Shown: positions 15,986 through 41,599 of the stretch, piece by piece
Position numbering within the stretch: the stretch's first letter is position 1
How the letters are laid out: each line of letters starts with the position of its first letter
From: an uncultured Eubacteriales bacterium
Lineage (GTDB): Bacteria; Bacillota; Clostridia; Christensenellales; Borkfalkiaceae
Assembly (NCBI GenBank): GCA_902486425.1
Contig: CABTOK010000009.1
Span: 42,194 to 106,193, forward strand
Direction of reading: 5' to 3'
DNA: 64,000 nt
Position numbers and translations under genes: made by a program
The notes under the pieces: generated by a model
Seen by the model: the letters and a program-made list of their open reading frames with translations, nothing else
Told to the model about the DNA's origin: nothing
Databases searched by the model: none

Positions 15986-16951
15986 ATGAAAAGAATAGGT
16001 ATTTTAACGAGCGGCGGCGACGCCCCCGGCATGAACGCCGCGATAAGAGCGGCTGTAAGATCGGCGCTTTCTTTCGGGCTCGAAGTTTACGGAATCGAAA
16101 GAGGATACGAAGGTCTTATTCACGGTCAGATCGAAAGACTCGAAAGTCGCTCTGTTTCCGATATGATTCAGCGCGGCGGCACTTTTTTGAAGACTGCGAG
16201 AAGCGAAGAATTCAAAACGGAAGAAGGTCAGCGTAAAGCTGCGGACGAGCTTGAAGCGTACGGAATAGACGGACTTATCGTAATCGGCGGCGACGGATCA
16301 TTCCACGGGGCGAAAATTCTTTCCGAAAAGTTCGGCATAAAGTGTATGGGTATTCCCGGAACCATCGACAACGATCTTGCTTATACCGATTATACTCTTG
16401 GCTTCGATACGGCGGTGAACACCGTTCTGACGGCTATCAATAATTTAAGAGACACGATGCAGTCGCACGACAGAGTTTCTTTAATAGAAGTTATGGGAAG
16501 AAGCTGCGGCGACATAGCTCTTTATGCGGGCGTAGCCGGCGGCGCGGAATATATTCTTATACCCGAAAAGCCCTACGATCTCGACGAAATCGCAAAATCT
16601 TTGATAAAGAGCAAACTCCGCGGAAAAACTTCCAACATGATAGTTCTTGCGGAAGGCGCTGGTGACAGAGACCAGATAGTAAGCTATCTTATGGAAAAGG
16701 CGGGCGTCGATATAAAGATGACTCACTTAGGTCACGTTCAGCGCGGCGGTTCGCCTACAATGGCGGACAGAATCCTCGCAAGCCGGTTTGCAGTGAGAGC
16801 GGTAAAGGAACTTATGGACGAAAATTCCGTTCCGGCGGCTATCGGCATAAAGGGTAACGAGGTCGTTGCCGTTCCTTTCGAAGAAGTATTCAATACCCCG
16901 AAAACTTTCGACGAAGAACTTTATAACATAGCGCAGATTCTCGGAAAATAA
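15986..16951 (+). CDS. pfkA: ATP-dependent 6-phosphofructokinase
   Basis: 321 aa with GILTSGGDAPGMNAAIRA, GGDGS and MGR motifs. Perfect RBS CAAGGAGGTATCTAGCATG. Classic dnaE-pfkA neighbourhood. Confidence 0.9.
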   Translation: MKRIGILTSGGDAPGMNAAIRAAVRSALSFGLEVYGIERGYEGLIHGQIERLESRSVSDMIQRGGTFLKTARSEEFKTEEGQRKAADELEAYGIDGLIVIGGDGSFHGAKILSEKFGIKCMGIPGTIDNDLAYTDYTLGFDTAVNTVLTAINNLRDTMQSHDRVSLIEVMGRSCGDIALYAGVAGGAEYILIPEKPYDLDEIAKSLIKSKLRGKTSNMIVLAEGAGDRDQIVSYLMEKAGVDIKMTHLGHVQRGGSPTMADRILASRFAVRAVKELMDENSVPAAIGIKGNEVVAVPFEEVFNTPKTFDEELYNIAQILGK

Positions 16952-17052
16952 TAAAATAAAAGCCGGTTACGGCGTTAAAAAGTTAGTAATTTCCGCAAAT
17001 ATCGCGGAATTATCATAAAACACTAATAAAAAAGGTTAAAGGAGACTTAATC

Positions 17053-18300
17053 ATGAAAAATCTTAAAGGCGCGTTAATGTTCGCGCAGTCGGGCGGTCCT
17101 ACTTCAGTTATCAACGCAAGTGCGGCAGGCGTATTTATCGAAGGTCTTAAATCCGAAGCCGTTACGGCTGTTTACGGCGCGGCTCACGGTATAAAGGGCG
17201 TTCTTAACGAAGAATTTTACGATATTTCGAAAGAAGATCCGAAAGAACTCGAACTTTTGAAATATACTCCCTCGTCGGCTTTAGGTTCTGTAAGATACAA
17301 ACTTAAAGACGCGAAGGTAGACGACACCGATTATAAGAGAATTCTCGAAGTATTCAAAAAATATAACGTTCGTTTCTTCTTCTACAACGGCGGAAACGAT
17401 TCTATGGACACCTGCAACAAGATCTCGAAGTATCTTGCTAAATCCGGCTACGATTGCAACGTAATCGGCGTTCCCAAAACAATCGACAATGACCTTTACG
17501 GAACCGATCACTGCCCCGGATACGCTTCGGCGGCTAAATACATCGCTACCACCATTATGGAAGTAAATCTCGACGCGAGAGTTTACGACACCCCGATGGT
17601 TTGCGTTATCGAATGTATGGGCAGAAATGCAGGCTGGCTTACCGCCGCTGCTAAACTCGCTACCTACAAAGGACTCGGCGCGGATCTTATTTATCTTCCC
17701 GAAGTTGATTTCGATATCGACAAATTCGTTGCGGACGTAAAAGACGTTTGTGCGAAGAAGAACAATAAGTGTATTGCTGTCGTTTCGGAAGGTATCCACA
17801 ATAAAGAAGGCAAACTTATCTGCGAAGTTTTGGGCGAAACCGGCGCGAGAGACAGCTTCGGCCACGCTCAGCTCGGCGGCGTTGCTGCGGGACTTGCTAA
17901 CCTTATCAAGAACGAAACGGGCTTCAAGACGAGAGGAATCGAACTTTCGCTTATGCAGAGATGCGGCGCTCATTTAGCGTCGAAGACCGACGTCGAAGAA
18001 ACCTTCAAAGCGGGCAGAAAGGCTGTTCAGGCTGCGGTTTCCGGCAAGACCGACAAGATGGTTTGCTACGAAAGAAAGGACGGCGATAAATATAAGATCG
18101 CTTATAAACTTCTTCCGCTTAAACTTGCCGCTAATACCGAAAAGACCGTTCCCCTCGAATGGATAACCGATAACGGAACCAACGTTTCGGACGAATACGT
18201 TAAATACGCTCTTCCGCTTATTCAGGGCGACGCTAAAGCTCCGCTCGAAGACGGACTTCCGAGATTTGCTAAACTCAAAAAGGTTCTCGTTAAAGAATAA
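17053..18300 (+). CDS. pfp: Second phosphofructokinase of the long (about 415 aa) PPi-type group
   Basis: PFK fold with GGPTSVINAS and YNGGNDSMDT (GGxDS where ATP enzymes have GGDGS) and MGR. Length and motif substitutions are typical of pyrophosphate-dependent PFKs. Confidence 0.6.
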   Translation: MKNLKGALMFAQSGGPTSVINASAAGVFIEGLKSEAVTAVYGAAHGIKGVLNEEFYDISKEDPKELELLKYTPSSALGSVRYKLKDAKVDDTDYKRILEVFKKYNVRFFFYNGGNDSMDTCNKISKYLAKSGYDCNVIGVPKTIDNDLYGTDHCPGYASAAKYIATTIMEVNLDARVYDTPMVCVIECMGRNAGWLTAAAKLATYKGLGADLIYLPEVDFDIDKFVADVKDVCAKKNNKCIAVVSEGIHNKEGKLICEVLGETGARDSFGHAQLGGVAAGLANLIKNETGFKTRGIELSLMQRCGAHLASKTDVEETFKAGRKAVQAAVSGKTDKMVCYERKDGDKYKIAYKLLPLKLAANTEKTVPLEWITDNGTNVSDEYVKYALPLIQGDAKAPLEDGLPRFAKLKKVLVKE

Positions 18301-18714: not shown

Positions 18715-19230
18715 ATGGAAAAGAAAAATTTTAACCGTGGAACTATGGGCGGCGGCATTGCCAGAATAATTATTGCGTTGGTTGCGGCGATAATTGCCGT
18801 TACGGTTATCTGTTCCGGTATAAAGTCGTACGATCCTGAAGATAAGTTCGGAACGGTGTTCATGTGTCTGATCGGGGGAATAATGATTGTCGCGTCGATC
18901 GGCTTTATTTGTAACGGCGTAAAAATGATTCTTGACGGCAAAAAGTCGTTTGAAGTTTCTCGTAAAGGTCACTCAGAGAACGGAAGAATAACAGACTTAT
19001 CCGAAACCGAAGTAACCGAAAATAACAACGGATGCATATCTAATTACACGATATATAACCTGAAGTTTGAATATACGGACGATTCCGGCAACTTGTGCGA
19101 AAGTCAGGAACAGATCAGTCAGAATGTTTACGAAAAGTTACGGCAAATGGCTCTCGTTCCGATTCTTGTATACGGTGAGCGCGCTATATTCGATAAAAAA
19201 AGATTCGATAACGAAAACAATATAGGCTAA
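18715..19230 (+). CDS. Hypothetical small membrane protein (2 TM helices plus soluble C-terminal domain)
   Basis: 171-aa ORF with RBS TAGGAGGTTAATCTGATG and two hydrophobic helices near the N-terminus. A terminator hairpin lies at 19279-19312. Confidence 0.5.
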   Translation: MEKKNFNRGTMGGGIARIIIALVAAIIAVTVICSGIKSYDPEDKFGTVFMCLIGGIMIVASIGFICNGVKMILDGKKSFEVSRKGHSENGRITDLSETEVTENNNGCISNYTIYNLKFEYTDDSGNLCESQEQISQNVYEKLRQMALVPILVYGERAIFDKKRFDNENNIG

Positions 19231-20271
19231 ACCTGTATTTATTACGAATTTATTTATGATCTTATATTAACAAAATCAACTCGTCTGAAACTAAGAACTT
19301 CGGACGAGTTTTTTATTATTTGTCCGCTTATCGGAAATATGTCGTGGAACTAAAAATAAAAAACGGGAAAAGAACGGGGGAGAAGATTTGTTCTTAAAAA
19401 AAGACCGTTCTGCGAAAATTTAAAAGTAAAAAACCGACGATTTTATCCGCCGGCTGTATAGTTCGAAAGTATTCAGTTGTGCCTGCCGTTTTTGCGTAGC
19501 CGACTTTTACCGCTGTAAGCGAATGAATATCGTTTGTTCCTTTTAAGTAAGTCTTTTACGTTTGAGAGCAGGAGTTAATAGAGTAGATCGGACCATACCT
19601 CCTTTATAAAATGCGTCCTTGTATCCTTATCATAAATAATTCTCCCTATTAAGGATTGTATATAGGCTTGGTTCGTGTGAGCCTGTTTGAAATTAAACCG
19701 CTTGATGTCTCCTTTTGTATTGTATTTTGGTTTAATTATCGGGTTATAACTGCATCGGTCTGTACCTCCTTTTGATATTAAGTAGTTGTGATGTGCATCG
19801 GACCATACCTCCTTGTGTAAATTTTGGCTGAATTGCGATCTTTGTATCAAAAACCGACTTTGTAATTATTTCATCGGACCGTACCTCCTTGTGTGGCTTA
19901 TCTATATCTGCTTGCCTTTACGGGGCAAGGTATCATATCATAATTCCGTTTAATATCTTCGGTGGTCTGTACCTCCTTTATTTTCAGTCTGATTTATGTT
20001 TCACTTCTGCATCGGTCTGCACCTCCTTTATTATTTAAGAATCTGTTTTAAGGTTAAATTTTATTTTAATAGATTATTTGAATTTTCGGGGTATACCTCC
20101 TTTTTGTTATTATGTTGCCGTTATAAGATCAGTTATATTTCGGACCGTACCTCCTTGGTATTATTTTATAGAATGTTTGAAGTTTACGTTTCGGGTGGTC
20201 TGTACCTCCTTGTTTATTTTGGGTGGAAACTCTGAATTTTTTGTTTAAGTTCTTGCCGTTCCCTTATTTCT
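19231..20271 (-). ncRNA. Candidate long noncoding transcript carrying the nine SD-like repeats
   Basis: Transcription is inferred from the consensus promoter at 20278-20306 (minus strand) firing into the array. The 3-prime end is unknown; a possible stop is the bidirectional hairpin at 19279-19312. There is no coding potential. Confidence 0.3.
19587..20211. repeat. Array of 9 direct repeats of a 17-21 nt motif with core TACCTCCTT; on the minus strand each reads AAGGAGGTA(C/T)(A/G)G(A/T)CCGA, a perfect Shine-Dalgarno
   Basis: Copies at 19587-19604, 19754-19771, 19797-19814, 19873-19890, 19958-19978, 20011-20028, 20085-20102, 20139-20156 and 20191-20211. Spacers are non-homologous and range from 25 to 149 nt. 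No ORF of 60 aa or more lies in the region apart from a read-through artefact. Confidence 0.85.
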
Positions 20272-20277
20272 GCCTTT

Positions 20278-20306
20278 ATTATAGCAGACGGAAAAGCGTT
20301 TGTCAA
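20278..20306 (-). promoter_or_regulatory. Perfect consensus extended-minus-10 sigma-70 promoter (TTGACA-17-TGcTATAAT) on the minus strand, reading into the repeat array
   Basis: Minus-strand TTGACA equals plus 20301-20306. The 17-nt spacer is plus 20284-20300. TATAAT equals plus 20278-20283, preceded by TG. Confidence 0.7.
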
Positions 20307-20350
20307 TAGGTAAATGAAAATTTTCTTAAATTTTTATTTACAAAAACCGC

Positions 20351-20379
20351 TTGACAAAGGAGCCGTGTTCTGATATAAT
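20351..20379 (+). promoter_or_regulatory. Perfect consensus extended-minus-10 sigma-70 promoter (TTGACA-17-TGaTATAAT) on the plus strand, divergent from the previous one
   Basis: TTGACA at 20351-20356, 17-nt spacer, TGATATAAT at 20371-20379. Confidence 0.7.
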
Positions 20380-20384
20380 AGAAA

Positions 20385-20481
20385 ATGGCGGGAAAAATCT
20401 AAAAATTACCGTAAAATCTTATAAAAAACGGCAAAAATGCACAAAAAACAGGCTCAAAAGGATATTTTTAGCCTGTTTTTT
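20385..20481 (+). ncRNA. Candidate small RNA of about 95 nt: consensus promoter followed by an intrinsic terminator
   Basis: Predicted TSS about 7 nt after the minus-10. Terminator hairpin AACAGGCT(15-nt loop)AGCCTGTT at 20447-20477 followed by TTTTTT. No ORF. Confidence 0.4.
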
Positions 20482-21242
20482 ATATTTTTTTACAAAATCG
20501 CAATTTATTAAATATTAAGTAATTGTTTAATAAAATTAAATTTACAGGGCAATTTTAAGCCGGAAAACATAAAAAATATTAAAAAAAGCAAAAAAATTAA
20601 AAAATATTTTTTTAAAAAAAATTTTAAATAAAAAATAAATTTTTCGAAATTTTTAAGTAAAATTAAGTTTCGGGTGTTAAAACAAATCTGAAAATAAAAA
20701 TCCGGTTTTATAAAGAACGAACTTATATCTTACCGATATATAACACCTGAATTTAATGATAATGATAGAACTATGAAAATAGATAATCAGGATTTTACTA
20801 TTTACTATAGTAAGGAGTGTCCTTATGCAGAATACGAAGTAAAAGAACTAAATGAATATTCCAAAAATAATAATGTTAAAATTAACTTTATAAAAATAGA
20901 TTCACCTGAAAAAGTAAAAATGCTTCCTGTGTATAAAAGCAAAATAAAACAACGCAGCTTCCATAGAGGAGCCGCGTTGTTTTTATCTTTTATATGAAGG
21001 GTTTGCTTTTATGTATTTGGCAATTATTTGGCGATATAGGTATAGGCGATATAGGTATATAAATATAATACCGTAATCTTTGCCGAAAAGTTGCCGGTTG
21101 TATAATTGTTTGCTTTAATGTATCGCCGGAACGGTGCCGTAACCGTTAAACAGATAAAAATATGTTTATAAGTTGCGGTTTCACTACCGACGGCATGACC
21201 GCAGTGAACCGCGATACCGTGTTTTTTGTTTAAATAGCAGTA

Positions 21243-23162
21243 TTATTCCGAAATAAGCTCTGCGATAAGGTCAGTCGTCTCGGTTGCGTTTTCCAAGGGA
21301 AGACCTTCGATTATACGCGCTTCGGCATAAAGGACGAGAGCGTATTTTTTAAGCTTTTCTTCGTCGGTTATAAGCGATTTAAGCTTTTCGTAAATCTTGT
21401 GGTTGCCGTTTATTTCGAGAACTTTTTGAGCTTTCACGCTGCCGTTCGAGTTGGGCATGGAGTTAAGGACTTTTTCCATTTCTACGGAAACGTCGCCTTC
21501 GGTCGAAATGCAGACGGGGTGAGAATCGGATCTTAAAGCAACCTTGACTTTTTCGACTTTGTCGCCAAGAGCGGATTTGAATACTTCGCAAATCTTTTTA
21601 GATTCTTCGGATTCGTCGGTTTCGCCGGCTATTCCGAGATCGGAATCGGATACCGAGCGGAATTCTTTTTCTCCGGAGCCTTTCATGAATTTAGCTGCAA
21701 ATTCGTCAACGTCGTCCGTAAAGCACAAAACGTCGTAACCCTTTGCCGTAACGGCTTCGACTCTCGGTAAAAGCTTGATCGCTTCGGCGGATTCGCCGGT
21801 TGCGTAGTAAATATATTTCTGATCTTCGGGCATAGCGGAAACGTATTCTTCGAGCGTGACGAATTTATCCTGTTTTACCGAGCGGTAAATGATAAGATCT
21901 TTAAGTTCGTCGGCTTTCGCTCCCCAGCTTTCGTAAATACCGAATTTAAGCTGCAAACCGAACGCTTTGAAGAACTTTTCATACTTTTCGCGGTCGTTTT
22001 TAAGCATATCGGCGAGTTCCGATTTAATTTTCTTTTCGATGCTGTTCGCAATGAGTTTAAGTCTTCTGTTATTCTGTACGGTTTCTCTCGAAACGTTAAG
22101 GTCGATGTCGCAGTCGACCAAACCTCTCATGAAGCCGAAACAGTCGGGGAGAAGGTCTTTACACGTTTCGGTTATCATAACGCCGTTGGTGTAGAGCCTT
22201 AAACCCTTTTCGAAATTCTTCGAGTAGTAATTTATGGGAGCTACCGCGGGGATAAAGAGAAGAGCCTTGAAGTCTACCGAGCCTTCCATAGAAGTATGGA
22301 TGACTTTAAGGGGATTTTCGTAATCGTAGAACATGTTTTTGTAGAATTCGTTATATTCGTCTTCGGTTATCTCTGACTTGTTTCTCTTCCACAAAGGAAC
22401 CATGCTGTTGACCGTTTCAACCGCTACCGTCTGCGTCGAACTCTTACCGTCTTCGGTCGGTGTAAAATGCGTAACCTGCATTTTTACGGGGTATTTTATA
22501 TAATCCGAATACTTTTTGATAAGGCTTTTAAGTTTGTATTCGGTAAGATAGTCGGAGTAGTTTTCTTCTTCGGAGTCCGGCTTTAAGTGAAGAATAACGT
22601 CGGTGCCGTTTCCTTCTTTTTCGGCGGGCTTTATATCGTATCCTTCCGCACCGGAACTCGTCCACAGATTGGCGGCGTCCGAGCCGTAAGCTTTAGATAA
22701 AACTTCAACCTTGTCCGCAACCATAAAAGCACTGTAAAAACCTACGCCGAACTGACCTATAATGCTTATATCGTCCGACTTTTCTTTATTTTCCGCCTTG
22801 AAATCCCTCGAACCGCTCTTTGCTATTACGCCGAGATTGTTTTCAAGATCTTCGGCTGTCATGCCGATACCGTTATCCGAAATCGTTATGGTACGTTTAT
22901 CCTTGTCGAAAGCAACGTTAATCGAAAAATCCGATCTGTTGAGACCGCTCGCTCCGCCGTTCAGACTTTTGAAGTACAATTTATCTATCGCGTCCGAAGC
23001 GTTTGAGAGAAGTTCTCTCATAAAAATTTCTTTATTGGTGTAGATGGAGTTTATCATCATATCCAAAACTTTTTGCGATTCCGCTTTAAACTTTTTCATA
23101 ATAATTCTCCCGTGATTTTTATTTGTATGAATATAGGCGCCGGATTCAAACGTTTTTTGCAC
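21243..23162 (-). CDS. htpG: Molecular chaperone HtpG (Hsp90)
   Basis: 639 aa. N-terminal GHKL ATPase motifs (RELLSNASDAIDK, ISDNGIGMT, GQFGVGFYS) with middle and C-terminal dimerisation domains. Confidence 0.9.
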   Translation of the reverse strand: MQKTFESGAYIHTNKNHGRIIMKKFKAESQKVLDMMINSIYTNKEIFMRELLSNASDAIDKLYFKSLNGGASGLNRSDFSINVAFDKDKRTITISDNGIGMTAEDLENNLGVIAKSGSRDFKAENKEKSDDISIIGQFGVGFYSAFMVADKVEVLSKAYGSDAANLWTSSGAEGYDIKPAEKEGNGTDVILHLKPDSEEENYSDYLTEYKLKSLIKKYSDYIKYPVKMQVTHFTPTEDGKSSTQTVAVETVNSMVPLWKRNKSEITEDEYNEFYKNMFYDYENPLKVIHTSMEGSVDFKALLFIPAVAPINYYSKNFEKGLRLYTNGVMITETCKDLLPDCFGFMRGLVDCDIDLNVSRETVQNNRRLKLIANSIEKKIKSELADMLKNDREKYEKFFKAFGLQLKFGIYESWGAKADELKDLIIYRSVKQDKFVTLEEYVSAMPEDQKYIYYATGESAEAIKLLPRVEAVTAKGYDVLCFTDDVDEFAAKFMKGSGEKEFRSVSDSDLGIAGETDESEESKKICEVFKSALGDKVEKVKVALRSDSHPVCISTEGDVSVEMEKVLNSMPNSNGSVKAQKVLEINGNHKIYEKLKSLITDEEKLKKYALVLYAEARIIEGLPLENATETTDLIAELISE

Positions 23163-23178
23163 TCGAAGTGCGTAAGTG

Positions 23179-23205
23179 TTAGCACTCTATATTCAAGACT
23201 GCTAA
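23179..23205. promoter_or_regulatory. CIRCE (HrcA operator) inverted repeat in the htpG leader
   Basis: TTAGCACTC-tatattcaa-GACTGCTAA matches the CIRCE consensus TTAGCACTC-N9-GAGTGCTAA at 17 of 18 positions. It sits 17 bp upstream of the htpG ATG and directly downstream of a minus-strand TTGACA-17-TATTAT promoter (plus 23207-23235). Confidence 0.65.
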
Positions 23206-23373
23206 TATAATAACTCTTGAAAATTCAGTTGTCAAGGTTTTTTTAAAATTTTTTTAATTTTTATAAAAAGCGATATTGAGGCTATTTTCTGCACACATGT
23301 ATGTTATCGGTACAAAATTAAAAATTACATCCCATAAAAATATGAAAATCTTGTCGAAATTTTTTTTGATAAG

Positions 23374-23403
23374 TTGACATCACTGTTAAAAACAATATAT
23401 AAT
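23374..23403 (+). promoter_or_regulatory. Strong distal sigma-70-like promoter (TTGACA-18-TATAAT) about 430 bp upstream of the giant lipoprotein gene
   Basis: TTGACA at 23374-23379 and TATAAT at 23398-23403. The leader it would produce contains a 9-bp-stem hairpin at about 23573-23600 with no U-tract. Confidence 0.35.
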
Positions 23404-23692
23404 AAATAATAATAAGGTATAGAATAAACGATATAAAGATACAACGGCGATCCGGTCGGAGTGTCGTAATCTTAACGCTAATGGTTGTTAAGGTATACGT
23501 ATATGCTTAATTTTTATTATCGTTTAAGAACGTTTTATCGTAAAATTACATATTAATACGAGTGACATAAATAACGGGCGGCTTTTTCGGCTGCCCGTTA
23601 CGCTTTGAACTTCTCCGCAATTTTTTCGATATTGTCAAGGTAAAAAATAAAAACCGGTAAAAATATTTTTTATAAAATATTTACAAAAATGA

Positions 23693-23723
23693 TTGACAAT
23701 TTTTGCGGGGGGGGGGGTATGAT
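23693..23723 (+). promoter_or_regulatory. Proximal promoter of the giant lipoprotein gene, with an 11-G homopolymer (23707-23717) inside a 19-nt minus-35/minus-10 spacer; candidate phase-variable switch
   Basis: TTGACA at 23693-23698, spacer ATTTTTGC plus G11, then TATGAT at 23718-23723. The ATG follows at 23808, preceded by GGAGGAAATAAAATG. Confidence 0.55.
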
Positions 23724-23807
23724 TTAAATGAGAGGTTAAAAAAAGGCAATATCTTCGGTATCGGCGGAGATATTACCTTAAAATTTATTTTTTATGGAGG
23801 AAATAAA

Positions 23808-26800
23808 ATGAAAAGAAAAGCGCGTTTGATTCTCTGCGTCCTTTTCGCCGTACTCGCGTCGGCTTCGATGCTTTTTGCCGCGTGCAACTTCGGCGACGGC
23901 GCGGCGGAATGCGAGCATCTCTACGGCGAATGGGAAATAACCGTTCCCGCAACCTGTTCGAAGGAAGGCGAACAAAAGAGAGTTTGCTCGAGATGCAACA
24001 ACGAAGAAACTATGCCGATCGCAAAAATCGCGCATACGATCGTTCACGTCGAAGGAAAGGCGGCGACATGCGACGAAGCCGGTTACAAAGCTTACGACAA
24101 ATGTTCCGTATGCGATTATACCGAGTGTTATGAAAAGATTCCCGCTCTCGGTCATAATTACGGCGAAGCGACTTACGCCTGGAGTAAATATTATTCGACG
24201 TGCGTCGCGACGAGAGTCTGCGTCAGAGATAATTTTCACGTCGATACCGAAAGAGTAACTGTTACCGCGACCGTCGTGCAGCAAAAAACCTGCACACAGG
24301 ACGAACTTACAAAGTATACGGCAACCTTTACGGGCGAACTCGGCTCGGACGAAAAGACGGTAGTTACCAAAAAAGCGGGACACGAACTTATAAACGTACC
24401 CGCAAAAGCCGCTACTTGCGAAAAGCCCGGTTACAAAGCTTACGTAAAGTGCGCAAACTGCGATTATACCGAAGACTATGAAGAATTGCCCGCTCTCGGT
24501 CATAACTACGGCGAAGTAGCCTACGTCTGGAACGCCGATTACACCGTATGTAAGGCGGAAAAGGTTTGTTCGAGAGACGCAAAGCACGTTCTCACCGCAA
24601 ACGGAACAATAACCGAAACCGTTGTACAGGAAAAAAATTGTACGCAGGACGAACTCACAAAGTATACAGCTACGTTCGAAAGCGGCTTCGCCCCGACCGA
24701 AAAGACGGTAACGACAAAGAAAGCGGGACACGATCTTACAGACGTTTCCGGCAAAGCCGCAACTTGTACCGAAACCGGTTACAAGGCGTATAAAAAATGT
24801 AAAAATTGCGACTATACCGAAGGTTATGAAGAGATACCCGTTCTCGGACACGATTATGATTACAGCGACGTGGTCTGGAACGACGATTACACAGCTTGTT
24901 CGGTAAACGTGGTCTGCAAAAACGACGGTGCGCATAACTTTACCGTAAACGGAACGGTTACTAAAAAGGTAACAAAAGAAGCGACGTGTACCGAAGACGG
25001 TGAAATAAAAATCACCGTAACGTTCGAAAAAGGCGTTCCCGCGGTTGAAAAGACGGTTGCTGTTCCCAAAAAAGGTCATAAGCTTACCCATTACGAAGCT
25101 ACTCCCGCAACTTGCGAAAAGGAAGGCAAAGAAGCTTACGATAAGTGCGCGAGCTGCGACTACACCGTCGGCGGAAACGCTATCCCGGCTCTCGGTCATA
25201 ACTACGGCGAAGTAACTTACGTCTGGAGTACGGACTACGCCGCATGCACGGCTACGAGAGTTTGTTCGAACGACGAAAGCCACGTTCTTACCGTAAACGG
25301 CACCGTAACGAAAACGGTTGTACAGGAAAAGACCTGTACTAAGGACGAAATTACTAAATACACCGCTGTATTCACGGGAGACATCGCTTCGGCAGAAAAG
25401 ACGGCAGTTACCGAAAACGCCGGACACGAACTCACCGTTATAGAAGGAAAAGCGGCGACCTGTGAAGAAGACGGTTACAAATCCTACAAAAAGTGCGGAA
25501 AATGCGATTATGCGGAAGAAAAAGAAGTTATTCCCGCGCTCGGACACAATTTCGGCAAGTATGAAAAATCTTCCGAAGTCGCTACCGGAAATGCTTGCGA
25601 ATACACCGTAACTCTCACCGCAAAATGCTCGCGCTGCGACAAGGCCGACAGCAAGACTTCGACCATATATAAGCACGAATACCGCGAAGAAATCGTAAAA
25701 GCGGCCACCTGTGCGGAAGAAGGCTTAAAACATAAAATCTGTAAAAACTGCGACGTAGTTTACGGCGAAAATTATTCTTACTCCGATCCCGAAGCCCACA
25801 GCTGGGACGAAGGAACGGTTAACGAAAAGGGATACGTCGTATACTCCTGCACGACTTGCGGCGCAACGAAAACGCAGACTTCGGTAACGACGAAGGACGA
25901 AGACGGAGCATATACCGCTACCGTAAAAGCGGAGTCCAAAAACGAAGTAAGCGAAATCAGAATTATAGAAACCGAGAACGAAAAGTCGACCACTACCGTA
26001 ATTTCGCTCGATCAGAATACGAGAAACGGCTTGAACGGAGACATCACGCTTTCCGCAAAGAGCTATAATAAAGAAGAACTCCCGAAACTCACGGAAGAAC
26101 TTAAAGAAAAGATCGGCGAATCCAGGATTTATAACTTCACCATGACTGCGGGCGGCGAAAGCGTTACCAATTTCAAAGGAAACGTTACTATAACCATCGA
26201 TCACACGCTCGCTCCCGGCGAAGATTCCGATAATATAGTCGTATGGTGGATAGCCGACGACGGAACCGTCGAATCTATAAAAGTTACTTATTCGGACGGA
26301 AAGGTTACGTTTACGACGACTCACTTTTCCTATTACGTTGTAGCTAAGACTACGGCGGCAGAAAAGTGTAAAGCCTTCGGACACGATTATCTTGTAACCG
26401 AATCCGAATCCGCAACTTGCGAAACCGCGGGTTATATTGTAAAGGTATGCTCGGTATGCGGCGATTCTACTGTAGAAACCATTCCCGCAAAGGGACATAA
26501 GGTCGGCGGCGACGGAAACTGCAAATTATGCGGCAAGCATATCACAGACAAAGTTCAGACCGGATTTACCGAAACGTTAAAGAGTCTTTTAGGCGGCGAA
26601 CTCACCGTAAAATTCAATAACGTCGAAATGGAAATGTGGGATTTTGCAGACCTTTCGCTTGACAGCAAATTCTTCATGAGCTTTGCGGAACTTTACATAG
26701 GAGTAACTGCGGACGGCGAAGTCAGCGTATACGGCTACGGCGTAGGTTACTATACCACGAAGGATTTACCCAAAGATACGTTCAGGTTTGAAGCGACTCT

Positions 26801-29800
26801 CGCTATCGACAGCGAAAACTTCTATCTTAAAGCCGATATCCCGATGATATCGTCGTCTTCGACGAGCGATTATCTCGGCAAGACCGAATGGTTCAAAGTA
26901 AACGGCATGAATCAGGTAATTCCGCTCTCTTCGATGGTGGGATCGGGCGTTTATCAGATGATGAACGGCGTTCTCCCGGAAACCGTAAAGTGGATGAAGA
27001 CGGAACTTATCCCCGCGATAGAAAACGTTATAGACCTTAACTATTCTGTGATAAATTCCGTTATAGAAACGTTTGTAGATAGCTTATTTACTTCGTCGGA
27101 AGCCGAAGGCAACACCGTTTACGCTCTCGACGCGGATAAACTTAAAGCGGTTGCCGAAGTATTGATAAACGGTTCCGTAAAAGACGTATTCGAATATTTT
27201 GCCGGCGAAGGTTCGTTTGAGGCCTTTACCGCAGAACTCAAAAAACTCCTTGATATGCCTTTCGGCAAAATGCTTGAAAATGCGAAAGAAAAAGGCATTA
27301 ACATAAAAGCGGCTCTTGCAAGCGTAAACGGATTGCTTGCAAAATTCGTACCCGAAGGACAGGAAGCGCAGGCGGATATAGTAGCTATTATTTCCAATAT
27401 GTCTACCAAAGGGCAGATGACGATGACTACCGCAGAGCTTCTGGATCAGCTCGAATCGGAAGACTTCAAGTCGATGACTCTCGTAGACGTTATCAATATG
27501 ATGTCGAATAGCGGAAACGGCGGCTCCGGCGGCTCGGATAGCGAAGGAAACGTAACGGGCGGAAACGAAGGCAAAGGTAATGAAGAAAAGACGGAAAAAT
27601 ATGCTGCGGACGAATGCGTAAACGAAACTACCGAACAGCCGGCCGAGACGAAAATGACTTCGGACGATATAATAAACGGCTTGAAAGGCACCGCGGAAAT
27701 GGGTATTGTCGAAATAATACTCAACTTTAAAGGACAGCGCCCCGAAGCGGATCAGCTCGCCGAAATGAAGAAAAATTATCTTTCTACGGCGAATCAGATG
27801 ATCGACGTTATTACTTCTATAGCAAACGTTTCGTTTACTCTTAACGGGACGGGCGAATTTGTAAAAGCGGACGTAGACACTTCGATAAATCTTGCGAACT
27901 TCATTCCCGAACAGTCTTTAAGAAGCGTCGGCATCACGAGCATAACGGGCAAAATAAGCGTTGTAAAAGGTAAAGAACTTACTCAGGATTACGCTTCGTT
28001 CCTTAAAGAAGTTGTAGCCGAATCCGAAAAGGTAAGCTCGCTTATAACGGACGTCATAAAAGATTATTTTAAGGGCAGCGAATACGAAATCGTTTATAAT
28101 CAGCAAGGCTACGTCGATTATGTCGAAAAAACGTATTATAAAGAAGAAAATTTAGACGCAGGTTGCTTCAAGGAAGAAACGAGCCTTATGGTTCTTCTCG
28201 CAGCGATGAATCGTTGCGGCGCGGAATACGGAGCGGAAAGATACGTCGAACTTTACAAACAGTACGGCGAAAAGCTCAATATTTCGTTCAGAAAGGTTTC
28301 CGAAAACGAACTTACCGAAAGACTTTATTTCGGCAGCGGCGTCGGCGGATATATGTATTCGTTCAAAAAGACCTGCGGCAACAAATATTCGGTATCGCTC
28401 AATACTTCGACTCGCGGACCGATATCTGCTTTCGGCAGCAGCTCGGAAAACAACAATAATAATGAATATTATTACAATCTTACAGTAACTTTGAGCGTGG
28501 ACGATACAGCCAATAACAGACCTTCGGATATTGTTTATACCGCTTCGATGAGAGAGATTAACAGCATTCTCGGATATGAAGATACCGCGGATAACATAAT
28601 TCAGAGTATCATCGCCATGATGACTTCGGAAAGCGGCACCCAGATAACCGACGAAAACAGAAACGAGATCGAATCCGCAATCCGCATGAGAATAAACGAA
28701 GTATCGGATGTCGTAAGAAGAAACGCTACGTTCTATAATTACAATAACTTCTATTATAACGGCTATAGTTACTTCCCTTCGTTTACGGTAAATGCGGATA
28801 ACGGTTCTTACGTAGTTGAAGAAAGCGGTAACGATTACAGAATCTGCCACAACGACGTACTTGTAAAAGAAGATTCGCACACTCCCGAAAATTGTACCGA
28901 CTGGGGCTGGAAGTCCTATAAATGCGTCGCCTGCGGAGAAGTGTTCGTTAAGTATTACAGAACGGGACACAAGCACGTAACGAGCGAAGTAGTGTTCGAC
29001 GATCCCGAAAACCCGAACTGTACGACGGGCGTAACGGTAACTTATACATGTACGGACTGCAATCAGGTAATCTATATCGACAGATCGCAAGGCGGCGGAC
29101 ACGTATATCTTTATCAGAACGACGCGTTTGAAGATATGGGCCTTCCGGAAGCCGGACATAGGCACGTAACGGGAACTCTTACCTGCGTATGCGGCAAAAT
29201 GAACGGCGGATACAACAGTTCGTTTGAAAACATCTACGGATATTATGAAAAGAGCGAAGACGGAACAAAGACTTTTGTCTCCGGAGACGTATACCTTTGC
29301 CGCGAGTGCGATTTAGGCTTTGTTCTTACTGCGGACGTAAAACCGGGTACCGAAAAATGTACTTATATCATAACTCCGACTTATAAGCTCATGCAGCTCG
29401 TTTACGAAACCGAAATCGGAAAGGAAGATTATAAAGAAGTTTATGAAGCTTATATAAGCTTGCTCGAAGCTAAGGTCAGCGAAATCAATAAGGAAATCGA
29501 AAACGGCACATACGACGGTATTGACGATTTCTCGGGACGTCTTGAAGAAGCGAGAGCTCGCTACGCAGAAGCGCAGAATAGAGTAAACAGCTCTTCCGAC
29601 GCGCGTAACGTATACAGAGAAGCTTTGCGTATGTGGGCAGAAGTTAAAGATACTCTCGGAACCGGGCAGTACGAAAAGTTTGCCGAAAAGGCTTATCCCG
29701 TTCTTAAAGCTAATTACGGCGTAAAGGTCGGCGAACCTTATACTTATGAAAGACACGGTTCTGTCAGCGAAAGATACGAGCTCATCGGCAAGACCTGCGA

Positions 29801-31190
29801 AGAAGGCTATTACGTTATAGAAACATGCAGCGATTGCGGCAAAGTTATAGACAAGAGCGAAAGACGTGGTCACAGATATGACAAAGAAAAAAGAGAAATC
29901 GTCGGATCGAACGACGTTTGTTACAGAATCGTAACAAAATGCGAAATATGCGGCGAAATTATCGACAGCTATGAAAGAAGACATGAAAAGTATGTCGAAG
30001 TCGGTAAAGCTCTTAACGACGGATCTGTGTCCTGCGAAGACGGCTGGCATTATATTTATCGTTGCGACGAATGCGGCGCTACCTTTAACGGCGAAACGAG
30101 ATGCGATCATTATACAGAAAGAACTTTGATTGATCTTACGTCGATCGGCGGACCGAAAACGGAACACGAACATTATTGCTACGGTTGCTTATGCGGCAAT
30201 AGGATCGATAGTATAGAGGGCTTCGATAATTACTGCTACGAATATACTCTTAACGGAGAACTCGTAAACGGTGAATTGAATTACTGCTCCGAATGTAAAA
30301 TCGGTTACATACTTACTTACGAATCTTCAAACGAAAATTGCTTGCACACCGAAAGAAGAACTTATACTTTTGTACAAATAAGCATCGACGACGAAACGAA
30401 AGCCGTTACGGTATTAAAAACTTACGGCGAAAAATCAAGCGTCTATAGTTACGAGTCTCATAACGAAGAAGTTATAAATCAAGAAACGTTTACCGATATT
30501 GACGGCAAAGGCGAGGGCTTCAGGTTAACATTCAGATGCGGTAATTGCGGTAAAGAAAGAACCGAAACTCATTACGGACATTACTACGGAGATTCCGCTC
30601 CCGAATATAAACTTCTCGGCAAGACTTGCGAAGACGGAGTAGAAGTAACGAGAAGGTGCCTGATTTGCGGCGAAACCGATACCCATACGGAACACAAGCA
30701 TTTCGGCGAAGTCAAAGAAGTAACGACTCTTCAAGGCAAATACTGCACCGACGGCGTAAAGGTTTCTCGCGTTTGCACGATATGCGAGGGCGAGTTAAGT
30801 TCCGAAATTTATGACTATCACTTACATTATAATAACGGGGTAGAGCTTACAACGGGCGAAGATACCGATTGTAAACATATTCTTTTAGGTAACTATTGTC
30901 CGGATTGCGGTTATATCGAAATCATAAACTTTGAAAACGAAGTAGAGTACGGCGGGTTTGAAGTTTATAACTCGGACGGCGAATCGGTCGGAAATGCGTT
31001 GGGTTACTGCAAAAATTGCGCGTATGTTCTGTACAGATCCGTTAATCCGGACGGTAAGGAAGGCGATTTAAAGTTAGCCGTATGTTTATTCACTCTCGAC
31101 GAAAATAACGAAGGAATAGTAAAAGCGGTTATTTTAAGAGAACTCGAAGTTAAAGTCGTAAACAGAAATTACGAGTACGAAGGAAAATAA
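23808..31190 (+). CDS. Giant (2460 aa) cysteine-rich surface lipoprotein with five tandem ~115-aa Cys modules and a CxxC-dense C-terminal region
   Basis: MKRKARLILCVLFAVLASASMLFAAC is a signal peptide with a lipobox Cys. The module signature C-x3-GYKAY-x-KC-x2-CDYTE-x-YEE-IPALGHNYGE recurs every 340-350 bp at 24151, 24491, 24841, 25187 and 25532. A Gly/Ser/Asn/Glu linker (GSGGSDSEGNVTGGNEGKGNEEK) follows. Twenty or more CxxC(x)nH/C pairs lie between aa 1720 and 2440. No sortase or SLH signals were seen. Confidence 0.8.
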   Translation: MKRKARLILCVLFAVLASASMLFAACNFGDGAAECEHLYGEWEITVPATCSKEGEQKRVCSRCNNEETMPIAKIAHTIVHVEGKAATCDEAGYKAYDKCSVCDYTECYEKIPALGHNYGEATYAWSKYYSTCVATRVCVRDNFHVDTERVTVTATVVQQKTCTQDELTKYTATFTGELGSDEKTVVTKKAGHELINVPAKAATCEKPGYKAYVKCANCDYTEDYEELPALGHNYGEVAYVWNADYTVCKAEKVCSRDAKHVLTANGTITETVVQEKNCTQDELTKYTATFESGFAPTEKTVTTKKAGHDLTDVSGKAATCTETGYKAYKKCKNCDYTEGYEEIPVLGHDYDYSDVVWNDDYTACSVNVVCKNDGAHNFTVNGTVTKKVTKEATCTEDGEIKITVTFEKGVPAVEKTVAVPKKGHKLTHYEATPATCEKEGKEAYDKCASCDYTVGGNAIPALGHNYGEVTYVWSTDYAACTATRVCSNDESHVLTVNGTVTKTVVQEKTCTKDEITKYTAVFTGDIASAEKTAVTENAGHELTVIEGKAATCEEDGYKSYKKCGKCDYAEEKEVIPALGHNFGKYEKSSEVATGNACEYTVTLTAKCSRCDKADSKTSTIYKHEYREEIVKAATCAEEGLKHKICKNCDVVYGENYSYSDPEAHSWDEGTVNEKGYVVYSCTTCGATKTQTSVTTKDEDGAYTATVKAESKNEVSEIRIIETENEKSTTTVISLDQNTRNGLNGDITLSAKSYNKEELPKLTEELKEKIGESRIYNFTMTAGGESVTNFKGNVTITIDHTLAPGEDSDNIVVWWIADDGTVESIKVTYSDGKVTFTTTHFSYYVVAKTTAAEKCKAFGHDYLVTESESATCETAGYIVKVCSVCGDSTVETIPAKGHKVGGDGNCKLCGKHITDKVQTGFTETLKSLLGGELTVKFNNVEMEMWDFADLSLDSKFFMSFAELYIGVTADGEVSVYGYGVGYYTTKDLPKDTFRFEATLAIDSENFYLKADIPMISSSSTSDYLGKTEWFKVNGMNQVIPLSSMVGSGVYQMMNGVLPETVKWMKTELIPAIENVIDLNYSVINSVIETFVDSLFTSSEAEGNTVYALDADKLKAVAEVLINGSVKDVFEYFAGEGSFEAFTAELKKLLDMPFGKMLENAKEKGINIKAALASVNGLLAKFVPEGQEAQADIVAIISNMSTKGQMTMTTAELLDQLESEDFKSMTLVDVINMMSNSGNGGSGGSDSEGNVTGGNEGKGNEEKTEKYAADECVNETTEQPAETKMTSDDIINGLKGTAEMGIVEIILNFKGQRPEADQLAEMKKNYLSTANQMIDVITSIANVSFTLNGTGEFVKADVDTSINLANFIPEQSLRSVGITSITGKISVVKGKELTQDYASFLKEVVAESEKVSSLITDVIKDYFKGSEYEIVYNQQGYVDYVEKTYYKEENLDAGCFKEETSLMVLLAAMNRCGAEYGAERYVELYKQYGEKLNISFRKVSENELTERLYFGSGVGGYMYSFKKTCGNKYSVSLNTSTRGPISAFGSSSENNNNNEYYYNLTVTLSVDDTANNRPSDIVYTASMREINSILGYEDTADNIIQSIIAMMTSESGTQITDENRNEIESAIRMRINEVSDVVRRNATFYNYNNFYYNGYSYFPSFTVNADNGSYVVEESGNDYRICHNDVLVKEDSHTPENCTDWGWKSYKCVACGEVFVKYYRTGHKHVTSEVVFDDPENPNCTTGVTVTYTCTDCNQVIYIDRSQGGGHVYLYQNDAFEDMGLPEAGHRHVTGTLTCVCGKMNGGYNSSFENIYGYYEKSEDGTKTFVSGDVYLCRECDLGFVLTADVKPGTEKCTYIITPTYKLMQLVYETEIGKEDYKEVYEAYISLLEAKVSEINKEIENGTYDGIDDFSGRLEEARARYAEAQNRVNSSSDARNVYREALRMWAEVKDTLGTGQYEKFAEKAYPVLKANYGVKVGEPYTYERHGSVSERYELIGKTCEEGYYVIETCSDCGKVIDKSERRGHRYDKEKREIVGSNDVCYRIVTKCEICGEIIDSYERRHEKYVEVGKALNDGSVSCEDGWHYIYRCDECGATFNGETRCDHYTERTLIDLTSIGGPKTEHEHYCYGCLCGNRIDSIEGFDNYCYEYTLNGELVNGELNYCSECKIGYILTYESSNENCLHTERRTYTFVQISIDDETKAVTVLKTYGEKSSVYSYESHNEEVINQETFTDIDGKGEGFRLTFRCGNCGKERTETHYGHYYGDSAPEYKLLGKTCEDGVEVTRRCLICGETDTHTEHKHFGEVKEVTTLQGKYCTDGVKVSRVCTICEGELSSEIYDYHLHYNNGVELTTGEDTDCKHILLGNYCPDCGYIEIINFENEVEYGGFEVYNSDGESVGNALGYCKNCAYVLYRSVNPDGKEGDLKLAVCLFTLDENNEGIVKAVILRELEVKVVNRNYEYEGK

Positions 31191-41014: not shown

Positions 41015-41254
41015 CTATTTTTTTGCATTTTTTTTGTATATCGTGGGTGCAACTCCGTAAAACTTTTTAAAACTGTTGCTGAAATGATATTCGTCCGAAA
41101 ATCCGCATATATCCGAGATTTCTTTGATGCTTTTTTCACCGGATAAAATGAGCTCCTTCGATAACTGGAGCCTTATTCTTAACAGAGTAAAAAGGGGAGC
41201 TTCGCCGGTAGCTTTACGGAATTTGTATATAAGTCCGTTGTGCGAAAAAGACGG
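41015..41254 (-). pseudogene. AraC-family transcriptional regulator, C-terminal HTH fragment only
   Basis: The minus-strand frame encodes ...YKFRKATGEAPLFTLLRIRLQLSKELILSGEKSIKEISDICGFSDEYHFSNSFKKFYGVAPTIYKKNAKK*. There is no start codon. An in-frame stop lies at 41255-41257, and the sense ORF of a different gene sits immediately upstream. Confidence 0.55.
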
Positions 41255-41599
41255 CTATGAAGTAAGACAATGTTCTGTTTGCGGCAAAATTGAAACTAAT
41301 AGTATTAGCAGAACCGGACATAAATTCACTGCGTGGCGAAAAGATGGCAACGACTATGTTCGTGACTGTTCCTTATATGCCACGACGGTGAGTATGAAGA
41401 AACCATTGACGGAATAATATACGATTTTCCTACTATTTTCGGTTATTATGCCACTGAACGCGAAGCGAATGAAGTAGCCGAATATAAAAAGAAGTATTCG
41501 CGAGTGGGAAAGAAACATCCGGAAAATATCTCTGTCGATGCAGATCCGGTTGATACCTATAACGATTGGAGTAAAGGATTTGTTCCTTTTGACGAGTAA
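41225..41599 (+). pseudogene. Frameshifted fragment encoding a Cys module paralogous to the giant lipoprotein repeats, followed by an unrelated C-terminal tail
   Basis: Frame 1 encodes CEKDGYEVRQCSVCGKIETNSISRTGHKF, which matches the C-E-K-x-G-Y-...-C-x2-C-...-GH signature of the 23808-31190 protein, and stops at 41415-41417. The +1 frame continues from 41366 to 41599 as ...DGEYEETIDGIIYDFPTIFGYYATEREANEVAEYKKKYSRVGKKHPENISVDADPVDTYNDWSKGFVPFDE*. Confidence 0.4.

Follow-up and report, generated by a model that had tools for sequence, protein, structure and literature searches.

A predicted giant surface lipoprotein of uncultured Clostridia: putative zinc-site mini-domains, an uncharacterised head and a candidate poly-G promoter switch

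What kind of structure is built by a single exported polypeptide of 2460 residues that contains 95 Cys and 49 His, and how might its expression be controlled? The question is raised by a giant gene (23808-31190, plus strand) in a 64,000-nt stretch of DNA from an uncultured Eubacteriales bacterium (contig CABTOK010000009.1), which we refer to in its whole length as the window. The original prediction, made from the letters alone, had described the product as a candidate novel metal-binding or disulfide-rich surface structure. Our analyses suggested a more specific answer, to which we assign a probability of roughly 0.6: a stalk of beta mini-domains, clamped by zinc and anchored by a lipid, that presents an uncharacterised head, probably under phase control by a poly-G tract. 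This answer is supported by the anatomy of the repeated units, their similarity to domains of an IgA protease, the pattern of ligand exchange across about 1000 homologous units and the length differences of the tract among related assemblies.

Cys/His units of the N-terminal repeats

The gene is an uninterrupted open reading frame (ORF) from the ATG at 23808 to the stop codon at 31188-31190, and the Cys and His of the product are concentrated in residues 1-910 and 1680-2460. Direct repeats recur at an exact spacing of 348 nt, five times, between 24056 and 25575. Five tandem modules had been proposed here; the period was confirmed, but only four of the modules (aa 80-543) are complete, and number five (aa 544-660) diverges after its first unit. 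The modules are pairwise 48-62% identical in protein and 64-76% in DNA. Near-identical stretches of 30-40 nt had also been reported, of which a 28-nt string was found three times (exact at 24141 and 24489, with one mismatch at 25185), the longest exact repeat being 27 nt. A hidden Markov model (HMM) showed that the 116-aa module is a composite of two units, A (positions 2-40) and B (positions 26-106), which in homologues form arrays of A alone at a period of ~38 aa, of B alone at ~77 aa, or of both jointly. The A unit (~37 aa) reads Cys-x10-Cys-x2-Cys-x13-His (Cys3His), and the B unit (~79 aa) reads Cys-x5-His ... Cys ... His. A motif scan found 16 Cys/His tetrad motifs in the giant protein, and the candidate tetrads of the whole protein may number roughly 22-29. 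The AlphaFold2 (AF2) model of aa 196-427 was all-beta with a mean predicted local distance difference test score (pLDDT) of 95.4, and the modules have no solved structural homologue.

A full-length search with 8000 candidates scored returned at least 3968 homologues of the giant protein, mostly giant Clostridia surface proteins, and all but three orthologues match only via aa ~40-920. Many of the homologues have precomputed Pfam accessions that we take to denote LRR_5/BspA, cohesin, dockerin, SLH, Big_2, CW_binding_2, Flg_new and cadherin-like domains. No Pfam or NCBIfam model covers the A or B units, and judged from sequence they form a very widespread family, with members in thousands of surface proteins of Clostridia, that still lacks curation. 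The modules can consequently no longer be called novel, as had been supposed, given these homologues and a description of the family, from models, in the IgA protease of Thomasclavelia ramosa.

The link to this protease came from a search of the double-module profile against all PDB sequences, which gave one significant match, 9qa6_A, 'IgA protease' (E = 5e-5), at chain positions 852-909, 939-982 and 1099-1142, within the domains ZBD1 and ZBD2; the best stretch aligns KAATCTTAGNSAYYTCDGCDK...KIPAPGH. The A-only profile again placed 9qa6_A first (E = 1.6e-4), before rubredoxins and C2H2 fingers. A structural and remote-homology check of one N-terminal module had been suggested with the original prediction, and its outcome is the all-beta model and the modest match to ZBD1/ZBD2. 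9QA6 is the cryo-EM entry of the ectodomain of the T. ramosa M64 IgA protease (IgAse), in which ZBD1 and ZBD2 are chained three-stranded antiparallel sheets of ~35-55 aa each, with putative structural zinc sites of 2His+2Cys or 3Cys+1His, and ZBD1 is 129 aa and about 110 angstroms long (PMC12237041). The same domains, designated CTD2 and CTD4, are without disulfides or structural homologue (PMC12237041, PMC12415215). CTD2 was a fully extended rod by small-angle X-ray scattering, and the domains were proposed to project the protease from the cell, a stalk-like role termed 'periscope' (PMC12415215).

The A and B units resemble the IgAse domains in sequence, in their Cys/His tetrads and in an all-beta fold without a solved homologue. 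Common to both are, residue for residue, the motif K-A-A-T-C-T-x2-G-x5-C-x2-C ... I-P-A-x-G-H, tetrads of Cys3His or Cys2His2 type, small pure-beta units set end to end, and a presumed spacer role in a Firmicutes surface protein. The differences lie in position and number: the units of the giant protein are N-terminal, by a predicted lipid anchor, whereas those of the IgAse are C-terminal, by a sortase anchor, and the five units of the IgAse compare with about 15 predicted in the stalk of the giant protein and more in its head. Unlike the IgAse, the giant protein has no attached protease or other known domain. The published descriptions of the IgAse (PMC12237041, PMC12415215) do not include the B unit of ~79 aa, neither its Cys-x5-His hairpin nor the His/Cys swap described below. 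On these comparisons, the A/B modules belong to a kind noticed in 2025, unvalidated and uncurated, that appears far more widespread than those two studies indicate. The units also share a CxxC knuckle and distal Cys/His ligands with zinc ribbons, rubredoxin knuckles and C2H2 fingers, and some homologues have weak precomputed matches to zf-C2H2, zf-BED and similar Pfam families. However, no zinc-finger family reaches the Pfam threshold on the giant protein, the profile matches to rubredoxins and C2H2 fingers are weak (E 1e-3 to 1e-2), and the A/B units are predicted to be extracellular, stand end to end and have a conserved signature of their own, ATC-x3-G ... ALGH.

The nature of the sites was addressed with 3161 A units and 1065 B units taken from 176 proteins. 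C6, C17, C20 and H34 occur together in 2176 of the A units, and C17 and C20 are jointly lost in 629, each of which is the A-like second half of a B unit. In the B units, C24 is conserved in 93%, H30 in 76%, C48 in 90% and H78 in 72%. Asp or Asn at position 27 accompanies H30 in 760 B units, 125 have C27 without H30, and only 17 have C27 together with H30. His30 and Cys27 are nearly mutually exclusive, so that a Cys-x2-Cys knuckle stands in for the Cys-x5-His hairpin. Such a swap is predicted by a four-ligand metal site and not by a disulfide, and for this reason we prefer a metal site; the canonical units, with three Cys and one His, have an odd number of Cys, which favours metal over disulfides as well. 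The Cys/His sites of the A and B units are most likely metal sites, and structural zinc is the most likely metal.

In the arrangement that we propose, about 15 small mini-domains of beta sheet, strung along residues ~45-910, make up a long and thin stalk. Each of them would be clamped by a tetrahedral metal site, most likely structural zinc, instead of a hydrophobic core or disulfides. Scaled from the dimensions of ZBD1, the stalk would be about 50 nm long, or about 55 nm when the scaling is applied to aa 45-690.

One A-type unit also occurs elsewhere in the window (PLCEKDGYEVRQCSVCGKIETNSISRTGH; A-profile E = 3e-8), in a 97-aa ORF (41124-41417, plus strand) that has no signal peptide and appears to be what is left of another member of the A-unit family.

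Lipoprotein signal, domain layout and the proposed distal head

The protein starts with MKRKARLILCVLFAVLASASMLFAAC, which comprises a basic n-region (MKRKAR), 17 uncharged residues as h-region and an A-A-C26 lipobox. The regular expression used for the Gram-positive lipobox matches the giant protein as well as 46 of 59 proteins having the M domain described below, in agreement with the lipoprotein signal that had been predicted. Cys26 would be lipidated and would hold the N-terminus at the membrane. Pfam and NCBIfam scans of the giant protein gave no family above threshold, including zinc-finger, zinc-ribbon, adhesin, SLH, LRR and Ig families, which bears out the earlier statement that no SLH, sortase, LRR, Ig or adhesin motif is recognisable. 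The sole Pfam match at E <= 1 was CARDB (E = 0.16, 12.6 bits against a cut-off of 22.7), and NCBIfam gave none at that level. The features of the coding region are as follows.

23808-23885, plus strand: lipoprotein signal peptide with lipobox ...LFAA-C26 (translation and regular-expression match)
23940-24035, plus strand: first single A unit (aa 45-76; C50, C60, C63, H76), from the motif scan, A-profile independent E-value (i-E) 9e-7
24045-25436, plus strand: four complete A+B modules (aa 80-543) of 348 nt each, from repeats, profiles and AF2
25437-25883, plus strand: fifth module (A unit and diverged rest) and knuckles C597/607/610, C635/645/648 and C681/684, from the motif scan and profiles
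25884-26357, plus strand: beta-rich domain (aa ~693-850), assigned to no family, common to 65-87 of 117 homologues
26367-26534, plus strand: A unit (C871/881/884/H897) and C905-x2-C908, from the motif scan and A profile, directly preceding the M domain
26535-27527, plus strand: M domain (aa 910-1240), a six-strand beta meander with long helices
27528-27677, plus strand: low-complexity G/S/N/E linker (aa ~1241-1290), from the translation, with pLDDT <50 and the highest dN/dS of any region
27678-28844, plus strand: second alpha/beta region (aa 1291-1679), lineage-specific, found in orthologues and the homologue P0121 only, AF2 model partly confident
28845-31190, plus strand: C-terminal Cys/His region (aa 1680-2460 and stop) with 43 Cys, 24 His and 13 CxxC, from the motif scan and internal repeats

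The weak CARDB match is the one Pfam signal of the beta-rich domain. The G/S/N/E linker had been taken as the end of the middle region, a placement that needs correction, as another alpha/beta region of ~390 aa follows it.

When 1.84 billion representatives were searched exhaustively with HMMER for relatives of aa 910-1690, the result was 57 clusters, and nearly all of these match only via aa ~920-1240 (domain M). Most M-domain proteins start with a lipobox and have no Pfam domain or name, and Pfam scans of 10 M-domain homologues and all 31 alignment members revealed no consistent family. Other lipoproteins of 1000-2600 aa repeat the arrangement of lipobox, A/B array, beta domain, A unit and M, and short lipoproteins contain one A unit and M, or M alone; an A unit comes before M in every family member examined. 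Residues 1291-1679 and 1680-2460 have relatives only in close orthologues, one metagenome contig and P0121 (1909 aa, 33-37% identity). The AF2 model of aa 905-1690 (pLDDT 71.8) consists of the six-strand meander with long helices, a disordered linker and a second helix/meander region. A match of the middle region to SidF in the PDB sequence profile search (E = 0.004) was helical and was set aside as spurious.

It is unlikely, in our opinion, that the protein has its functional core in this middle region, which would then carry or transfer hydrophobic ligands of lipid or lipoprotein type in the manner of LolA/LprG or TULIP proteins, with the Cys modules only as spacers. Such a role would agree with the top Foldseek matches of the M-domain model, which are weak (ApoB100 beta/alpha1 and SPLUNC1), and with the conservation of the M domain in short lipoproteins without long stalks. 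However, the identities of these structural matches are 3-16%, Foldseek returned nothing for the M-domain model at E <= 0.001, the middle-region model has an overall pLDDT of only 71.8, and the searches gave no sequence-level link of the middle region to the carrier families. We prefer an arrangement in which the metal-clamped stalk projects a head from the cell, composed of the M domain, the second alpha/beta region and the lineage-specific C-terminal block; the curved beta sheet and helices of this head would be compatible with a hydrophobic-ligand or an adhesion role.

The C-terminal block would contribute roughly 9-14 further predicted Cys/His sites to the head. At least 20 CxxC pairs had been claimed for the last 740 residues, where our count is 12 (13 in the last 781 residues and 24 in the whole protein); all 12 examples that had been quoted are present. 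The block is internally duplicated, residues 1738-1870 resembling 1997-2196 and residues 1983-2032 resembling 2260-2306, and it includes a helical insert at aa ~1871-1975. We found nine clear tetrads of the type C-x7-10-C-x2-C-xn-H or H...CxxC...H and two larger Cys/His clusters. Among close orthologues, 40 of the 43 Cys are conserved, and the positions at which one or another of the compared sequences differs (2099, 2124, 2143 and 2426) are exactly those outside Cys3His or Cys2His2 tetrads. Relatives of the block occur in four close lineages and P0121 only, and its profile found only sub-threshold C2H2 fingers among PDB sequences. From its sequence pattern, this dense array of motifs may be read as lineage-specific, diverged knuckles of the A-like type C-x9-10-C-x2-C-xn-H.

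Disulfides, module number and the maintenance of the gene

The view that the conserved Cys form disulfides, in an EGF-like extracellular scaffold without metal, appears improbable. The IgAse was monodisperse only with reducing agents, which would suit disulfides; its 24 Cys nevertheless include no disulfides seen or predicted (PMC12237041). The giant protein is predicted to be exported, extracellular Cys-rich repeats are often disulfide-bonded, and its B units have an extra Cys at column 18. Against this stand the odd Cys count of canonical units with their invariant His, and the exchange of His30 for Cys27, neither of which would be expected of disulfides. The host belongs to an anaerobic gut Clostridia lineage, and such bacteria are generally not known to have oxidative folding systems. 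Of the two alternatives left by the original prediction, an exported, Cys-rich and modular structure with metal sites is the better supported.

Even less probable is a canonical Periscope Protein, in which homologous recombination within the array of five modules would make the stalk longer or shorter from strain to strain. Periscope Proteins combine highly identical tandem repeats with variation in repeat number (PMC9704523). The exact 348-nt spacing, the identical stretches of up to 27 nt common to modules and the 'periscope' role proposed for the homologous IgAse domains (PMC12415215) speak for this class. By contrast, the modules are too divergent for it in both DNA and protein, and P0001, P0002 and P0003, which represent three orthologous lineages with 85-100% identity, have five modules each; no variation in repeat number was seen among these lineages in more than 10 assemblies, whose orthologues all have 2458-2463 aa. 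In the more distant P0121 the order of units differs, which is not a simple change of copy number. That module number changes by recombination is therefore possible in principle but unsupported: DNA identity between the repeats is only 64-76%, and each of the three lineages has the same five modules.

The stalk that we propose shares with Periscope Proteins and G5-E stalks (SasG, Aap and the SHIRT domains of Sgo_0707) the plan of a single-chain surface protein with tandem small beta domains, from which an anisotropic rod projecting a distal functional region would be expected (PMC8201768, PMC9704523). It differs in its less identical repeats, in the lack of observed copy-number variation and in its fold. 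The zinc of Aap acts in dimerisation via surface sites of His, Asp and Glu (PMC12415215), whereas the sites predicted for the giant protein are fully coordinated Cys/His sites within domains.

The gene is real, maintained and under purifying selection. Decay to a pseudogene in related strains had been named as grounds for doubt; the orthologue is intact in every orthologous assembly found (2458-2463 aa), and dN/dS over the gene is 0.21-0.26. The giant protein is 85% identical to that of the L003 lineage, compared with 97% for HtpG and 92% for the neighbouring MatE, which together with the intact orthologues and the dN/dS values indicates a relatively fast-evolving gene, as is typical of and expected for an exposed protein. 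The nearest named genome is Clostridiales bacterium UBA11475 (86-88% identity), and one sample record among the orthologous assemblies is labelled gut metagenome. The neighbours are housekeeping genes: upstream lie dnaE, two phosphofructokinase genes and htpG, and downstream lie genes for a tetratricopeptide repeat (TPR) protein, a MatE transporter, a helix-turn-helix (HTH) regulator and a nicotinamide mononucleotide (NMN) transporter; the order htpG, giant gene, matE recurs in related contigs and is syntenic across lineages. Three further candidates were ruled out: a pseudogene or non-coding artefact by the intact orthologues and dN/dS, mobile-element cargo by this synteny and the restriction of a downstream recombinase to the UBA11475 lineage, and an intracellular zinc-finger protein because a signal peptide and lipobox are present.

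That recombinase is a large serine recombinase with Resolvase, Recombinase, Zn_ribbon_recom and DUF4368 domains, ~330 nt 3' of the orthologous gene in the UBA11475 lineage (L005/L006/L007; for example L005 9224-10392), where the window has the TPR protein followed by MatE; its occurrence indicates a lineage-specific insertion beside the locus. Two adjoining genes of the phosphofructokinase family (321 aa and 415 aa) follow dnaE at 15986-18300. Between a 171-aa ORF and htpG, ~2 kb (19230-21243) have a low G+C content of 0.35-0.37 and no ORF of at least 150 aa. An Rfam scan of 19000-24000 gave no match.

The promoter poly-G tract and the significance of the locus

Three elements were recognised upstream of the coding region.

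23693-23723, plus strand: promoter-like element, TTGACA (23693-23698), 19-nt spacer and TATGAT (23718-23723), read from the sequence
23745-23777, plus strand: hairpin GGCAATATC...GATATTACC in the 5' untranslated region (5' UTR), with arms kept in three lineages and a variable loop
23796-23800, plus strand: ribosome-binding site GGAGG, 7 nt 5' of the ATG at 23808, conserved in the alignment

The spacer consists of 8 nt and G11 (23707-23717), the latter directly before TATGAT, and this is the sole run of at least nine G in the window, where 0.1 would be expected. The tract was compared upstream of the orthologous gene in L003, L004, L006, L007 and L008-L012. Its lengths in the orthologous assemblies were G9, G11, G11, G12, G12 and G13, and four assemblies are broken inside it: three contigs start there, and the UBA11475 scaffold has an N gap there. 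An identical protein, P0178, occurs behind both G11 and G13. The locus fits the anatomy of a contingency locus, with a tract of at least 9 nt between the -35 and -10 hexamers whose length varies among assemblies. Only with G9-G10 would the spacer have the optimal length of 17-18 nt. We regard the tract as a candidate that may represent the anatomy of a slipped-strand phase switch, and expression of the giant gene is probably phase-variable through poly-G slippage in the promoter spacer.

Promoter-spacer homopolymers control phase variation of Neisseria porA and opc (poly-G/C) and Mycoplasma vlp (poly-A). The candidate resembles these switches in the position of its homopolymer, which separates the -35 and -10 hexamers upstream of a gene for a surface protein, and in tract lengths that vary between isolates; it differs from them in its occurrence in Clostridia and in tract lengths that are taken from metagenome assemblies. 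Phase variation in this group is mostly ascribed to invertible DNA; the poly-G tract would add a simple-repeat phase switch.

The hairpin at 23745-23777 had no Rfam match. Between htpG and the giant gene there is also a perfect sigma-70-like promoter (TTGACA-18-TATAAT, 23374-23403), followed after ~170 nt by a conserved GC-rich hairpin and T run (AACGGGCGGCTTTTTCGGCTGCCCGTT). The whole element (23374-23610) is without an Rfam match, its interior differs in the L003 lineage, and it may give rise to a small transcript or act as a leader.

Several points weigh against the reading of the locus as a zinc-clamped stalk with a phase-controlled head. First, the PDB matches of E = 5e-5 and 1.6e-4 are modest, short CxxC profiles also catch rubredoxins and zinc fingers at E ~1e-3, and the zinc sites of the IgAse reference domains are themselves only predicted, 'pending experimental validation' (PMC12237041). 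Second, the Cys at column 18, present in 23% of B units, gives the B units of the giant protein a fifth potential ligand, and the C-terminal units match the A profile weakly (best i-E 2e-4). Third, the fold matches of the M domain are generic curved beta sheets, the best being outer-membrane barrels. Finally, the promoter of the giant gene is a consensus match only, and metagenome assemblies from short reads are prone to errors in the length of homopolymers.

Taken with these reservations, the giant gene would encode a membrane-anchored surface lipoprotein of an uncultured Clostridia bacterium that is a relative of UBA11475 and occurs in gut metagenomes, and poly-G slippage in the promoter spacer would probably switch its expression. 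More tentatively, and with less than even odds, the A and B units may mark a superfamily of extracellular mini-domains with structural zinc, very large and uncurated, from which thousands of giant surface proteins of Clostridia would build their stalks. The giant gene would then encode one of its members, phase-variable and lipid-anchored, with a previously unrecognised head made of the M domain and a lineage-specific multi-zinc C-terminal block. Another lipoprotein family, so far uncharacterised, is defined by the M domain. The His/Cys ligand swap over about 1000 units provides independent comparative evidence for the putative zinc sites of IgA-protease type, and the 116-aa module, predicted at a pLDDT of 95, offers a clean target for validation. 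Zinc-clamped stalks have so far been described only in models of a single IgA protease; if the tetrads bind zinc, all domain databases lack a major structural solution by which gut Clostridia build long stalks at their surface. If the superfamily reading were also true, the surface architecture of gut Clostridia would depend on zinc availability, and the giant protein, as an antigen at that surface, would be switched by poly-G slippage in its promoter.

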